Part shown: in pieces, positions 14,580 through 19,308 of the stretch | Position numbering within the stretch: the stretch's first letter is position 1 | Layout: each line of letters begins with the position of its first letter | DNA from: Candidatus Heimdallarchaeota archaeon | GTDB taxonomy: Archaea; Asgardarchaeota; Heimdallarchaeia; Hodarchaeales; Hodarchaeaceae | Assembly: GCA_020353515.1 (NCBI GenBank) | Contig: CP070695.1 | Location: 2,130,571 to 2,194,570 of the forward strand | Length of the DNA: 64,000 nucleotides | Direction: 5' to 3' | Translations under genes and position numbers: made by a program | The notes under the pieces: model-generated | The model's input: only the letters and a program-made list of their open reading frames with translations | Databases searched by the model: none | What the model was told of the DNA's origin: nothing

Positions 14580-15143
14580 GTGTGGAACCCAATGAACTAC
14601 GAAGAACAGAAAGCAAAATATCATTTGAAAATCATTGTCTGTGGTGCTGGGGCTGTGGGGAAAACATCAATTGTACGACGTTATGTTGAAGATAAGTTTG
14701 AATTTAATTACCTCCTTACAGTTGGTTTAGATCCATCTAACCGTAGAATTGAAGTGGATGGGATTCAAGTAAATCTAGTAATTTTTGATGTTGCTGGCCA
14801 AAAACGCTTTCAAACGTTACGGGATGTTTTTTTCAGAAAAGCCAATGGTGCCCTCTTAGTATTCGACCTCACACGACCTGAAACTCTTGATGAGCTCTAC
14901 GAATGGAAGATACAAATTGATAATCGTCTTGGAAAAGATCGGATTCCAGCGATATTAGTTGGTAATAAATCTGACCTTGAGGATATTCAGATTGATTATG
15001 GTCTGCTAGAAGACAAAGTTATTCCAGATTTTAAGCCTGTAATATATCTTGAGACTTCAGCATATCAGGATAAAAACATCCGAGACACATTTTTGATTTT
15101 GACAGAGGCAATCTTGAGGCGACAGGGTATCCTGACAGAATAG
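14580..15143 (+). CDS. Rab-like small GTPase (Ras superfamily)
   Basis: G1 GAGAVGKT, G2 TVGLD, G3 DVAGQ, RFQTL/FFRKA RabF-like segments, G4 NKSD, G5 ETSA. No C-terminal Cys. Confidence 0.92.
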   Translation: MWNPMNYEEQKAKYHLKIIVCGAGAVGKTSIVRRYVEDKFEFNYLLTVGLDPSNRRIEVDGIQVNLVIFDVAGQKRFQTLRDVFFRKANGALLVFDLTRPETLDELYEWKIQIDNRLGKDRIPAILVGNKSDLEDIQIDYGLLEDKVIPDFKPVIYLETSAYQDKNIRDTFLILTEAILRRQGILTE

Positions 15144-15478: not shown

Positions 15479-15697
15479 TCAAATGAGTTGTGCAAAAAAA
15501 TTCCGGAAGATTGGTTTCTCGATTCTGATTGCATTTCCCTCGCAATTCAGCTCGCATGCTCGACATTTCAAACACAATATGGGATCTACGAGTTTTGCTT
15601 TATTTTTATCCTTATTAAATAGAAAACAACCCTTTGGACACACTTGTACGCAGAATTCACAACCTAAACACCTTTTAACGTTGAAATGTATCACCAA
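15479..15697 (-). CDS. 2x[4Fe-4S] ferredoxin in the HgcB-like position
   Basis: CLGCEFCVQVCP and CLKCRACELNC. GGAGGA ribosome-binding site lies within the end of the upstream gene. Confidence 0.85.
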   Translation of the reverse strand: MVIHFNVKRCLGCEFCVQVCPKGCFLFNKDKNKAKLVDPILCLKCRACELNCEGNAIRIEKPIFRNFFAQLI

Positions 15698-15703
15698 ATT
15701 TAA

Positions 15704-16669
15704 TTATCCTCCAGCTAAAAATGGTACAAATATTAATCCGAGAAAAATTATAATGGCTGCTCCAGCTAATAGTGTGTAATCCTTGACAATGAAATCTGTA
15801 CCCCAAAAAGGTGTGAAACCATCAAAATCAGTGCCTATTATAATACCATATAATAACAATGTGCCAAAACCAAGACTAAAGTCCAGTGGTGAGCTATTAA
15901 AGAATAAAAAGGTACATAGTGGGACCAGAAGAATTGATAGTAAAATTCCTTTTATGAATCCTGAATTGAATGGTATTTTCGGATAAAGAACACCGAATAA
16001 ACTGCCGAAAAACCATATATAGATTAATAAAAATATTATGTTTGCTTGTAACCACTCAGACCATGGTTGAAGAAGGAATCCAAGTGGTTGAGCTAATATC
16101 GCCACAGCTAATATTAAAGGTATCAAGATCAAAGAAATGAAAACATTATGAGAGATAGTGTTTTCGACTCGTTTAAGAGTGTTAAATTCTACTCTTGACA
16201 TCTTCTGTGTTTTTGTTTTGTCATTTTGTATATATTCCCTTAAATCACCTATCTCAATAGGGCCAAATTTTACTTCCCATTCAGCATTTTTTAATACTGA
16301 ATGGTCAACCCCTGGAGCAGATAATTGAGGTAGGATCAATTCCCGATGATTAATAGCCTCAGAGAGGTCACTTTCATCTATCTGGGCAAGAATTTTCTCC
16401 GCTGTAAAATGTCCCCCAGCTGCGGAACACCAGACATTTACACCCTCTGTATTGACAACTAATAACCAAGCATTCATTTCCTGTCTCTCTAATGAAGCTA
16501 CCACTTTTTTATAGGTAACAAAATAATTAGAGGTAATTAAAACAAGTGAATCTTCATCAGGCTGCCCAATAGGGTAGAGTCCAGGCTTTATACTTAAATT
16601 TAAACCTGGGAATGCAATTCCTGCAATTGCTATTGAAAAAACTTCTTTTACAACATCAAGAATACCCAT
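15704..16669 (-). CDS. HgcA-like corrinoid-binding membrane protein (CdhD/CFeSP-like domain + TM domain)
   Basis: PGLYPIGQPDEDSLVLITSNY, LLVVNTEGVNVWCSAAGGHF, LILPQLSAPG, VKFGP, followed by about 5 TM helices. Confidence 0.88.
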   Translation of the reverse strand: MGILDVVKEVFSIAIAGIAFPGLNLSIKPGLYPIGQPDEDSLVLITSNYFVTYKKVVASLERQEMNAWLLVVNTEGVNVWCSAAGGHFTAEKILAQIDESDLSEAINHRELILPQLSAPGVDHSVLKNAEWEVKFGPIEIGDLREYIQNDKTKTQKMSRVEFNTLKRVENTISHNVFISLILIPLILAVAILAQPLGFLLQPWSEWLQANIIFLLIYIWFFGSLFGVLYPKIPFNSGFIKGILLSILLVPLCTFLFFNSSPLDFSLGFGTLLLYGIIIGTDFDGFTPFWGTDFIVKDYTLLAGAAIIIFLGLIFVPFLAGG

Positions 16670-16748
16670 TTAGACCACTTAGAATATTAATTATGTTTAT
16701 TTGTTTTCTTCGAATTTATACCAAATTCAAACTTTAGCATTGTCATGT

Positions 16749-17417
16749 CTAGGTTTTATCTATTTTCTTCAAAATAAATAAGGTGATATGCCCTCCAAGG
16801 TATGATTTTTCTTCAAGAAGTGTCCCAGCAAGATCTGTAACTAATGCTTTCATATCATGAACAGGATGTCTTGGAATTTTTGCAATTAATGCCGCTATGA
16901 GAAAAGCAGGAGTCCTTAAAAGATTAAAGAGATAATGTTTTGCCCTACTTTTTGGTTTTGATTCAGTTACTAGTATGAGGAGACTATGGTTCTTCAAACA
17001 ACAATATAATTCACTAAGAGATTTCTTAACCTGCTGCTGATCCAGTTCCGAGAGAACTAAAGTACAGATAACAATATCAAACAATTCAACTCGTAAAGGT
17101 AGGTTTGTAATTGAACAACGAATTATTTTGGGGTGAAGTCTTCTCCCATCGAATCTTCTTTTTGTTTGGTAAAGCATACTTTCAGAAATGTCCACACCAA
17201 TAGGGGTAACCCATGAAGCGTCTGCTATTTCCATAAACCGGCCATTTCCGCATCCAGCATCAAGAAGAAGCTGATTTTCACGAAGATAATTCAGTTTAAT
17301 ATGCTTAAAGATTTTGATTCGTCGACCTAAAGTTAGAAAGTTTATTAACCACTCATATTTTCGTGGTGCTTTCTTCTCAGCTAATGTCATCAGAATTGTT
17401 GCCATTTCTAATTTCAA
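16749..17417 (-). CDS. Class I SAM-dependent methyltransferase associated with the corrinoid protein
   Basis: LLDAGCGNG motif I, GVDISESML, FDIVICTLVLSEL. First gene of the HgcA-like operon. Confidence 0.85.
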   Translation of the reverse strand: MKLEMATILMTLAEKKAPRKYEWLINFLTLGRRIKIFKHIKLNYLRENQLLLDAGCGNGRFMEIADASWVTPIGVDISESMLYQTKRRFDGRRLHPKIIRCSITNLPLRVELFDIVICTLVLSELDQQQVKKSLSELYCCLKNHSLLILVTESKPKSRAKHYLFNLLRTPAFLIAALIAKIPRHPVHDMKALVTDLAGTLLEEKSYLGGHITLFILKKIDKT

Positions 17418-17569: not shown

Positions 17570-18037
17570 TTGGAGGATCCATTTTTGAAATTTGAACCAA
17601 TTGGATTCATAAGGTCGTCTGTAACGGAAGCAATTGACCATTGTTGGGGGGAAGTTGAGTCTGACATTCATTTGAATGATTATTTAACAGGTGGATTAAA
17701 AAAACTTGGTCAATTTTCTCATGTTATCATAATTTTCTACATGCACAAAACTCCCACGTTTAACTTGAAAACTGATTTAATTCGACGACCTCAAGGTAGA
17801 TTAGACATGCCAAAGATTGGAATCTTTGCACAACGTGCAAAACACAGACCAAATCCTATTGGCATAACAGTTGTCCAAATTATTTCTGTTATGAAAAATA
17901 TTCTGAGGGTTAAAGGATTAGATGCGATAGATGGAACACCTGTTTTAGATATCAAACCATATTTTCCCGTATTTGACCGTATTAATACCGCAAAAACGCC
18001 AAAATGGGTAGATGAATTGATGTTGGATTATTTTTAG
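17570..18037 (+). CDS. TrmO/TsaA (YaeB-like) SAM-binding tRNA methyltransferase family protein
   Basis: PIGFIRS, GIFAQRAKHRPNPIGIT, GLDAIDGTPVLDIKPY signature. Confidence 0.9.
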   Translation: MEDPFLKFEPIGFIRSSVTEAIDHCWGEVESDIHLNDYLTGGLKKLGQFSHVIIIFYMHKTPTFNLKTDLIRRPQGRLDMPKIGIFAQRAKHRPNPIGITVVQIISVMKNILRVKGLDAIDGTPVLDIKPYFPVFDRINTAKTPKWVDELMLDYF

Positions 18038-19308
18038 ATAGAATAAGATTTCTCTTTAATTGTATTAGAGTTTTTTAAGAACAAGAAAGATATAAATCCA
18101 CATATTGAGAAAAAGATAGCAAAACAAAAAATCAACGTATATTGATTTGGATCAACTCCCCGTAGAAAACCATCGATAGATGGACCTAATGCACCGACGA
18201 AGTTCGCTACTAACATGACCCATCCAAAAGCTCTTCCTCTTTTGGCAGAATTTTTTGCAACCAGGCTATTTGTAGATGGCCAAAACAAAGCATTCATCAC
18301 TCCTAATAAGATATAAAGGAGAAGAAGGACTAAATTATCATTAAAAATAAAAATACCAATTAAAATAACAGCCTGAAAAACAGCAGTAAACGATAGAACA
18401 ACTTTCTCTCCATATTTGTCTCCAAAAATTCCTCCAATCACCTGCCCAGTAGATCCTATAAGAGCAGATAAACCAATATATAAAGCAGCGGTTGAAATTT
18501 CAAAATTTTTTACTTCTGATAGAAATGTTGCGAGAATGAAGTTGATCATCCCTCGTGTCAATGACATTGTGATAATGAAAATGAAAGTTAAGAGTAATAT
18601 GGAGTTTTGAAAGTTATTAGCAGCTATTTCATTGTTCCCTTTGATTGGTTCTTCTTGACGTGAGATGGGAGGAACCTCAACAGAATGAGGTTCATGCCTT
18701 CCTATGAGAATCCAAAACACAATAGCGAGAAGACTTAGAGGAATAACCCAAATTAAGTAGATATTACGCCATGTTAGTATATCAATCAAAAAAAATACCG
18801 ATATTGGTCCTATTGAAGATCCAACACTGCCTCCTATTCCGTGTACGGCTAATATTCTTACATAATGTGAGGAAAATGATTGAGTTTTAGGATCTTCAAA
18901 TACTGTTGAAATCCACGAGAGACCAGCAGGATGATAAAGAGCAAGACTAGATCCCAATAAAACTACTCCCAGTAGCATTACTAAATAAGATTCGCCAAAC
19001 AAACCGATTATAAGTGCGCCTAAGGCAGCAAAAATTAAACTAACTAACATTAACGTCCCTTTATGGTATTTATCAGCTAATCTCCCAAAGAGAGGTGAAG
19101 GTAGTCCTGCTGCTAGAGTACCTATCGTACCCAAGGATCCTAACCCAATCCAACTCAAATCCCCTAAATTTGGAAAAAGATTTTCCCCTACAAGAAGTAA
19201 TATCGCAGGGAAAATAAAGAAGGGGATTTCAACACTACCATGGATTAAAATAGCAGATATAAGACTAATATTCGGAGTGATGGTCTTTGTTGCCAAATTA
19301 TATGACAT
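18034..19308 (-). CDS. MFS transporter
   Basis: About 12 TM; motif A GRLADKYHK and GIFGDKYGEK. Confidence 0.9.
   Translation of the reverse strand: MSYNLATKTITPNISLISAILIHGSVEIPFFIFPAILLLVGENLFPNLGDLSWIGLGSLGTIGTLAAGLPSPLFGRLADKYHKGTLMLVSLIFAALGALIIGLFGESYLVMLLGVVLLGSSLALYHPAGLSWISTVFEDPKTQSFSSHYVRILAVHGIGGSVGSSIGPISVFFLIDILTWRNIYLIWVIPLSLLAIVFWILIGRHEPHSVEVPPISRQEEPIKGNNEIAANNFQNSILLLTFIFIITMSLTRGMINFILATFLSEVKNFEISTAALYIGLSALIGSTGQVIGGIFGDKYGEKVVLSFTAVFQAVILIGIFIFNDNLVLLLLYILLGVMNALFWPSTNSLVAKNSAKRGRAFGWVMLVANFVGALGPSIDGFLRGVDPNQYTLIFCFAIFFSICGFISFLFLKNSNTIKEKSYSI

Follow-up and report, generated by a model that had tools for sequence, protein, structure and literature searches.

Here we describe a three-gene module carried by a 64,000-nucleotide (nt) stretch of the genome of Candidatus Heimdallarchaeota archaeon (contig CP070695.1, positions 2,130,571 to 2,194,570; "the window" below means this whole stretch). 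The module encodes a class I S-adenosylmethionine (SAM) methyltransferase (MT), a corrinoid-binding membrane protein of the HgcA type and a small ferredoxin. Its genes, and the junction between the last two of them, lie as follows (lengths in amino acids, aa):

16749..17417, minus strand: class I SAM methyltransferase, divergent CpaM-type, 222 aa from TTG 17417; Methyltransf_11/25
15704..16669, minus strand: HgcA-type corrinoid-binding membrane protein, 321 aa; CdhD C-terminal domain
15698..15712, minus strand: junction of the corrinoid-protein and ferredoxin genes, with Gly-Gly codons GGAGGA (Shine-Dalgarno-like), TAA, 6 nt and TTG, all in the same frame
15479..15697, minus strand: 2x[4Fe-4S] ferredoxin, 72 aa; Fer4_7 and Fer4

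All three genes are co-oriented on the minus strand in the order MT, corrinoid protein, ferredoxin, and the first two are separated in the window by 79 nt on the same strand. A reading made from the sequence alone (the original prediction) had recognized here a class I methyltransferase, a corrinoid/transmembrane (TM) protein and a 2x[4Fe-4S] ferredoxin in one orientation; the minus-strand open reading frames and the Pfam and NCBIfam matches agree with it, and the observation of the three-gene module is confirmed by matches far above chance. For the MT, ATG 17405 is the likelier start (218 aa), as the orthologues begin there with MATILM, and the TTG start of the ferredoxin aligns with the ATG of its orthologues.

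In Pfam, the MT matches Methyltransf_11 (E 3e-15) and the HgcA-like protein matches CdhD (77 bits, E 1.5e-21), the latter over the C-terminal 113 positions of PF03599 only. The NCBIfam E-values are 1e-61 for HgcAB_like, 2e-52 for HgcA, 6e-33 for CpaM and 1.5e-13 for HgcB. In bits, the MT scores 114.1 against CpaM (NF043040) over model positions 3-215 of 216, short of the cut-off of 180; it is the second-best CpaM match of the genome, and the next class I methyltransferase reaches 68 bits over a partial alignment. The HgcA-like protein scores 209.5 bits on HgcAB_like (NF043039; cut-off 285) and 178.5 on HgcA (NF040863; cut-off 275), with HgcAB_like preferred, and the ferredoxin scores 50 bits on HgcB (NF040864; cut-off 99) and also matches HgcAB_like positions 295-350. 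For reference, a canonical control (P0040) reaches 422 bits on HgcA, and bona fide HgcAB-like members reach 352-479 bits. All three window proteins are clear homologues, each under its curated NCBIfam threshold.

The HgcA-like protein consists of a Rossmann-like corrinoid domain, an amphipathic linker, five predicted TM helices and a conserved cytoplasmic TDFDGFTP..G.DF..KD motif. Its cap helix, GVNVWCSAAGG (residues 76-86, including Cys81), stands in the sequence as originally stated and is kept in 20 orthologues; the replacement of the canonical GK by AG also holds, in the ungapped register of WCSAAGGHF against WCAAGKGTF. In a gapless alignment Cys81 occupies the Thr position of the corrinoid iron-sulfur protein (CFeSP), and the family-invariant residues G76, N78, W80, C81, H108, P114, L116, A118, G136, P137, F162 and R167 are retained. 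With all corrinoid-binding hallmarks and the cap-helix Cys in place, sequence and model alike suggest that the protein would bind a corrinoid. Across all sampled sequences the cap helix splits the family: canonical proteins nearly all read WC(A/S)AGK, with two reading AAK, and none of the MT-linked lineages has GK, their helices reading CSAAGG, CGSRGG, CGACGG, CAAGGG, CAATGG or CAARG.

The ferredoxin carries two CxxCxxCxxxC motifs, CLGCEFCVQVCP and CLKCRACELNC, and an extra conserved Cys24; inspection of its sequence found neither a C-terminal Cys, nor a Cys73-type GC(A/G) motif, nor a CC tail. This agrees with the earlier remark that CLKCRAC comes without a Cys tail, as does a comparison with HgcB-type partners. 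Ferredoxins encoded next to fusions of the MT with the corrinoid protein bear HgcB hallmarks, namely GCGC, a CC at or near the end of the chain and, in most cases, CIECGAC or a sequence close to it, whereas those of the window and of a second Asgard family, f31 (72-75 aa), have none of the three. The MT retains the family-specific N-terminal helix LM..LE..P.YE...LTLG, motif I LLDAGCGNG and the C-terminal R.P...I segment, and in a clade-by-clade consensus the SAM-binding motif I is intact, with an acidic post-I residue, in the MTs of all clades.

An AlphaFold2 model of the HgcA-like protein built with 87 homologues (pLDDT 92.7, pTM 0.84) has the Rossmann-like domain, a cap helix at residues 79-85 and then a helical membrane domain. 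Its top Foldseek match is the HgcAB model 9a0b (9a0b_A; Cooper 2020), over the full length at E 2e-12, followed by CFeSP corrinoid domains at a root-mean-square deviation (rmsd) of 1.3-2.3 Å. A natural triple fusion of MT, corrinoid protein and ferredoxin was modelled as one compact unit (pLDDT 92.1, pTM 0.89); in a fold search its MT part came nearest to PE N-methyltransferase, Coq5 and TleD, all generic class I enzymes, and a PDB sequence search with the window MT likewise returned generic class I methyltransferases only.

METHYLTRANSFERASE linkage holds at every level tested. Within the same GTDB genus, orthologues of the corrinoid protein occur in nine other genomes at 56-74% identity, a tenth being broken by an assembly gap, and 9/10 same-genus loci preserve the order MT, corrinoid protein, ferredoxin; the sole exception in the genus (G068) has no MT within 1.5 kb. 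Ferredoxin orthologues, 57-79% identical, hold the same position in all nine other same-genus loci that contain this junction. An apparent 394-aa variant in one genome (G065) was rejected as an assembly gap (a run of X). The second Asgard family, f31, has the split three-gene set in 18/18 loci, its corrinoid proteins being 30-36% and its MTs 27-33% identical. Other Asgard paralogues show each kind of fusion: an MT gene beside a fused corrinoid protein-ferredoxin of 355-388 aa, which passes the HgcAB_like cut-off at 371-449 bits; a fused MT-corrinoid protein of 547-587 aa beside a separate ferredoxin; and a single chain of all three parts (601-655 aa). Every Asgard variant inspected is MT-linked.

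The same arrangement extends well beyond the Asgard archaea. A survey of HgcAB-like proteins, with one genome per species, covered 80 fused loci from more than 20 bacterial and archaeal phyla, 76 of them with at least 700 nt of upstream sequence. A CpaM-like gene lies upstream on the same strand in 74 of these 76, and abuts or overlaps the fused gene (typically by 4 nt) in 72 of the 74. The only two loci without it, L153 and L152, sit on contigs of metagenome-assembled genomes labelled Thorarchaeota and Heimdallarchaeota, where relocation or loss is possible. In the class Thermococci the upstream CpaM-like MT is found in 6/6 carriers, and one of the proteins is letter-for-letter WP_011011854.1 of Pyrococcus furiosus. 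As a control, no MT was found within 1.5 kb in any of 32 canonical hgcA loci (HgcA above the NCBIfam cut-off, cap WCAAGK or nearly so), a set drawn from one deltaproteobacterial class plus two source genomes, hence not independent; most HgcBs beside these loci end in CC.

The MT tree recovers the same clades as the corrinoid-protein tree and likewise pairs the window-genus clade with its f31 sister (99% versus 96% SH-aLRT). Because of this adjacency and these congruent trees, we conclude that the MT is encoded beside, and co-evolves with, the HgcA-type protein. By sequence comparison the three components are shown to be co-inherited, and to be translationally coupled or fused across two domains of life. 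Co-occurrence in other genomes had been proposed as a check on the original prediction, and the adjacency, fusions and congruent trees that it yielded make the linkage stronger than could be known from a single stretch of DNA. The NCBIfam names already pair these proteins: CpaM is the "corrinoid protein-associated methyltransferase" (NF043040), next to the HgcAB-like fusion protein (NF043039).

Phylogenetic position was assessed with a FastTree tree of 147 rows and IQ-TREE trees (LG+C20 PMSF) of 100 and 46 rows, rooted on four Asgard CFeSP sequences, and approximately unbiased (AU) tests were run on the 46-row alignment. Canonical HgcA forms a clade with 95-100% support, with the window protein outside it. 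The bona fide HgcAB-like clade, which includes some MT-corrinoid protein and triple fusions, has 95% support in the two larger trees and 90% in the 46-row tree; the window genus forms a clade of its own (99%), as do the f31 three-gene proteins (100%), and there are two or three further clades of MT-corrinoid protein fusions. The window clade lies outside both canonical HgcA and the bona fide HgcAB-like proteins. As for the likeness to the HgcAB-like group that had been proposed, HgcAB_like is preferred over HgcA and the cap helix is that of P. furiosus, but the protein falls outside the HgcAB-like clade with its 95% support and scores 209.5 where 285 is required.

Canonical HgcA joins the "CAARG" type of MT-corrinoid protein fusions weakly, at 81-89%, and in the 100-row tree a paralogue from the window genome is among these. 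The AU test does not reject a tree in which all MT-linked lineages make up a single sister group of canonical HgcA (p-AU 0.135). The trees give no firm resolution of the deep branch order; with the CFeSP outgroup, four of the five deep lineages are MT-linked. The paralogue lies in the same genome, outside the window:

L002:1046-3042, about 2.22 Mb past the window end: 547-aa CpaM-HgcA fusion with the cap NVWCAARGDK

Its MT domain scores 224.9 bits on CpaM, above the cut-off, and after it comes the gene of a ferredoxin of 115 aa in which every HgcB hallmark is present: CIECGAC, GCGC and, at the C-terminus, CC. Fusions of this "CAARG" type may be the nearest MT-bearing relatives of the true mercury methylase.

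The three-gene form itself is rare. Among 1.84 billion cluster representatives, its clade accounts for two sequences (482 and 473 bits), and the next match scores 214 bits; in a collection clustered at 90% identity, the genus clade comprises about 33 clusters, after which identity drops from 56% to 36%. Near homologues are labelled Candidatus Hodarchaeales and Hodarchaeota in NCBI, and a Ras-family GTPase gene adjoins the module, which sits on one contig of 4.94 Mb; the genome is that of an Asgard archaeon. Judged by these searches, the three-gene clade is a narrow lineage, so far seen in one Hodarchaeales-like genus and a sister clade in another Asgard family. Asgard archaea as a whole hold at least five deep lineages of the HgcA family, two of which occur in the window genome.

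Based on these observations, we suggest, with a probability of roughly 0.6, that the module is a membrane-anchored cobamide methyl-transfer system, a split and divergent form of the CpaM plus HgcAB-like pair, operating as a relay from SAM to cobalt to an acceptor. With a low-potential electron, the ferredoxin would reduce the corrinoid on its protein to Co(I); the CpaM-type MT would then methylate Co(I) with SAM, yielding methyl-Co(III) with Cys81 as the lower ligand; and from the thiolate-ligated methyl-cobamide the methyl group would pass, in the form of a carbanion or radical equivalent, to an acceptor located where the five-TM domain faces the cytoplasm, near the D.G.TP motif. Such a relay would turn the electrophilic methyl group of SAM into a nucleophilic or radical one, which would suit electrophiles such as soft metal ions and equally organic targets. 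Methylation of cob(I)alamin by SAM has precedent in the reactivation of MetH and in the class B radical-SAM methylases. Four elements of this scheme are inferred: that a corrinoid is bound, which way the methyl group flows, what the ferredoxin does and what kind of acceptor is served. The interpretation first drawn from the sequence, that of a membrane-bound, Cys-ligated cobamide methyl relay reduced by its own ferredoxin and loaded by its own MT, is supported, and none of the refutation tests put forward with it went against it.

Several points weigh on the other side. To our knowledge there is no biochemistry for any member of the CpaM/HgcAB-like family, and we know of no class I Rossmann methyltransferase that methylates corrinoid cobalt. 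As all three scores fall under their NCBIfam cut-offs, functional drift is possible. The absence of methylmercury above controls in P. furiosus (PMC4646819) and the negative result for Methanococcoides methylutens, the other tested carrier of the fused form (PMC5893877), come from whole-cell assays, which according to the authors are no proof of inability (PMC4646819). Finally, the neighbourhood analysis found no conserved neighbour pointing to a substrate: of the genes described further below, a transporter gene is generic, a TrmO gene is ordinary, and Hdr-like genes belong to the sister clade.

The alternative that survives best, though we consider it improbable, is that the corrinoid protein and ferredoxin perform reductive or radical cobamide chemistry other than methyl transfer on a membrane or small-molecule substrate, with the MT tailoring that substrate or its product. 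QueG and the reductive dehalogenases use vitamin B12 together with two [4Fe-4S] clusters as their cofactors, and the solved folds nearest to the MT are those of small-molecule, lipid and quinone methyltransferases. The corrinoid domain, however, is homologous to the methyl-carrying CFeSP and HgcA and not to QueG or dehalogenase folds, and the near-universal 4-nt overlap and the repeated MT-corrinoid protein fusions fit a direct hand-over of the methyl group better.

Could the module instead be a genuine, divergent mercury methylase, that is, a functional HgcAB with an accessory MT supplying methyl groups from SAM? The overall fold and domain order are those of HgcA, the cap-helix Cys is kept, some cap-helix substitutions are tolerated in mutagenesis of P. 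mercurii (quoted in PMC10087281), and the whole-cell negatives of the fused forms leave room for activity. Yet the high-stringency cap motif list of Hg-MATE, N[V/I]WC[A/S][A/G/S]GK, leaves out the NVWCSAAG(G) of the window (PMC10087281), so that the protein fails this list as well as the NCBIfam HgcA cut-off (178.5 against 275). In the trees, too, the expectation that it would not fall inside canonical HgcA was borne out, the canonical clade having 100% SH-aLRT support without the window protein; constraining the window clade to group with canonical HgcA is 20.4 log-likelihood units worse (p-AU 0.027). The ferredoxin lacks the Cys73-type motif and CC tail of the canonical HgcBs examined, and the window protein shares its cap, NVWCSAAGGH, without a single difference with WP_011011854.1 of P. 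furiosus, a non-methylator. Canonical and CpaM-linked systems also coexist in single genomes, which points to different jobs for the two. We regard a mercury methylase here as very unlikely, and the acceptor is probably not Hg(II). The published facts on which the original prediction had leaned in this matter, namely the motif list (PMC10087281) and the P. furiosus (PMC4646819) and M. methylutens (PMC5893877) negatives, are as it quoted them.

The coexistence of the two systems is seen in two deltaproteobacterial genomes, G401 (L174/L179) and G402 (L175/L180), each of which encodes a canonical HgcA (450-460 bits) in addition to a CpaM plus HgcAB-like pair.

Methyl flow in the reverse direction has even less in its favour: here the corrinoid protein would take a methyl group from a methylated substrate, as in demethylases and methylotrophy, and the class I protein would be an adaptor that does not use SAM. 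The genome does encode many B12-binding proteins (14 with a B12-binding domain, which speaks for corrinoid use), but SAM-binding motif I and the acidic post-I residue are intact across all clades, and no MtaA/MtbA- or MetE-type acceptor methyltransferase is linked to the module. Methyl transfer from SAM is, moreover, effectively irreversible. The window genome has no CdhD/E, and its only PF03599 proteins are the window protein and its paralogue; the module is therefore not part of an acetyl-CoA synthase.

The boundary between the corrinoid-protein and ferredoxin genes is relevant to a further alternative. In the window the two genes share a frame, with the TAA and two codons between them, and when read through the TAA they score 271 bits on HgcAB_like (cut-off 285). 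The stop is present in 10/10 genus loci, with the ferredoxin in frame in six and out of frame in four, and in most genus loci a GGAGG formed by the final Gly-Gly codons stands just before the ferredoxin start. Since none of the ten loci lacks the stop and four of them have the ferredoxin in another frame, we view this as a true gene boundary with translational coupling. A fifth hydrophobic helix follows the D.G.TP motif, and the chain then ends, in 55/55 unfused family members, the window protein included; this helix is absent from 28/31 corrinoid protein-ferredoxin fusions, and 3/4 triple fusions have extra hydrophobic sequence at this place. Whether the ferredoxin is fused or separate goes together with how many TM helices the corrinoid protein has. 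With four helices the chain would return to the cytoplasm, the ferredoxin side, and with five it would not, so that read-through would misplace the ferredoxin; the topology, with a cytoplasmic corrinoid domain, is predicted from the model together with hydrophobicity and the distribution of charges. Recent fission and programmed read-through were both rejected as explanations of the in-frame TAA, given the ten stops, the out-of-frame ferredoxins and the fifth helix.

One sequence departs from this pattern: P0034, from an 845-bp metagenome contig in ENA, is the same as P0020 over their shared membrane domain and has a Gln codon at the stop, so that it reads into the ferredoxin. This may be a natural polymorphism, a sequencing error or a non-functional allele.

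That a stop codon has interrupted a once fused HgcAB-like gene and left a decaying module on its way to loss is very improbable, since the single in-frame TAA, the three scores under family cut-offs and the Gln of P0034 that might suggest it are set against the conserved stop, frame changes and GGAGG, orthologues at 56-79% identity that keep every family-invariant residue, the fifth TM helix shared with the unfused relatives, which on read-through would place the ferredoxin on the wrong side of the membrane, and a sister clade with the same three-gene layout.

The following genes surround the module:

18034..19308, minus strand: transporter of the major facilitator superfamily (MFS), MFS_1 186 bits, no specific NCBIfam family
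17570-18037, plus strand: TrmO (tRNA m6t6A methyltransferase), above the NCBIfam cut-off, between the MFS and MT genes
14580-15143, plus strand: Ras-family small GTPase, Ras 134 bits
12553-14421, minus strand: polytopic membrane protein of 622 aa; C-terminus acidic and rich in Pro/Glu; matched by neither Pfam nor NCBIfam

In L059-L062 and further loci of the genus the MFS gene immediately precedes the MT gene in the same orientation, and the f31 loci lack it; its membership in the module is uncertain, and it may reflect genus-level synteny alone. The TrmO insertion is limited to the window and one relative (L012), the MFS gene abutting the MT in other members of the genus. The 622-aa membrane protein and the Ras GTPase are syntenic beside the module genus-wide, at 56-84% identity. 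In one genus of the f31 clade (L067:7532-12389; L069-L073) the genes directly downstream of the ferredoxin gene encode an HdrA-MvhD fusion of 1152-1283 aa, an HdrC-like Fe-S protein and an HdrB-like CCG protein, and these Hdr-like genes may be a low-potential electron source. A scan for sigma-70 promoters and terminators gave chance-level results; its consensus is irrelevant for an archaeon.

The module is closest in kind to the CpaM plus HgcAB-like systems, such as P. furiosus WP_011011854.1 with its upstream MT, with which it shares the same three parts in the same order, a cap without GK and a ferredoxin without a Cys tail. It differs from them in having three genes in place of two, in a fifth TM helix that is extra relative to the fused forms, and in its separate clade and its scores (209.5/285, 114/180 and 50/99). 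With the canonical HgcA/HgcB, reportedly established as the mercury methylation pair by Parks and colleagues in 2013, it shares a corrinoid domain with a Cys-bearing cap, five TM helices, a small separate ferredoxin gene directly downstream and the fold match to 9a0b; unlike that pair it has a cap without GK, CLKCRAC in place of C(M/I)ECGAC, no Cys73-type motif or CC tail, and a dedicated SAM MT, which is absent from 32/32 canonical loci.

More distantly, the corrinoid domain is homologous to that of CFeSP (CdhD/E, AcsC/D; PDB 2h9a, 4djd and 4c1n) at E 3e-16 and 31-35% identity, with an rmsd of 1.3-2.3 Å over about 125 residues, and both would be methyl-carrying cobamide proteins in need of low-potential reactivation, a property predicted on the side of the window protein. 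CFeSP differs in having a TIM barrel and an N-terminal [4Fe-4S] domain in place of the TM domain and Thr in place of Cys81, and its methyl donor is methyl-H4folate via MeTr, whereas that of the module would be SAM via a class I MTase. The reactivation domain of MetH with its flavodoxin, in which a low-potential carrier and SAM generate methyl-Co(III), offers a mechanistic analogy only: the SAM-binding folds are unrelated, and what is a repair step in MetH is proposed here as the productive loading step.

The novelty lies in the variant and not in the idea, as the NCBIfam names already record the partnership of the MT with the HgcAB-like protein. Fused HgcAB proteins have been described since 2015 (Podar 2015, Gilmour 2018, Lin 2023), the last of these papers (PMC10083202) already pointing out an Asgard subclade. 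The neighbouring methyltransferase is not mentioned in Podar 2015, Capo 2022 or Lin 2023; the very word methyltransferase is absent from the first two, and in the third it is used only for HgcA itself and in one citation. No paper with the phrase "corrinoid protein-associated methyltransferase" was found in the literature searched. What is new is a three-gene, five-TM, sub-threshold lineage confined to Asgard archaea and coexisting with a fused paralogue, together with three comparative rules: the dichotomy in the presence of the MT, the relation of TM number to fusion, and the two types of ferredoxin.

A broader evolutionary scenario, which we offer tentatively and hold to be rather doubtful, is that SAM loading through a CpaM-type MT was ancestral in the whole HgcA family. 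HgcAB would then be derived, having lost the MT, switched its methyl donor and gained the GK cap and a Cys-tailed HgcB, and the window clade and its Asgard sister would be an early branch that kept the ancestral chemistry with an acceptor other than mercury. The basis for this is the MT linkage of four of the five deep lineages in the trees with a CFeSP outgroup, and the grouping of canonical HgcA, weak at 81-89%, with MT-corrinoid protein fusions whose ferredoxins already bear HgcB hallmarks.

Mercury biogeochemistry has yet to settle which methyl donor the HgcA family uses and what the family originally served, and metagenomic surveys must decide which hgcA-like genes count as methylators. 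The window clade should not be counted as a mercury methylator in such surveys. Every sampled non-canonical lineage of HgcA is tied to a dedicated SAM MT, and the sampled canonical loci are not. As three small, separate proteins, the module described here is perhaps easier to reconstitute than the fused forms, and may offer a way to study the chemistry from SAM to cobalt to acceptor in this family.

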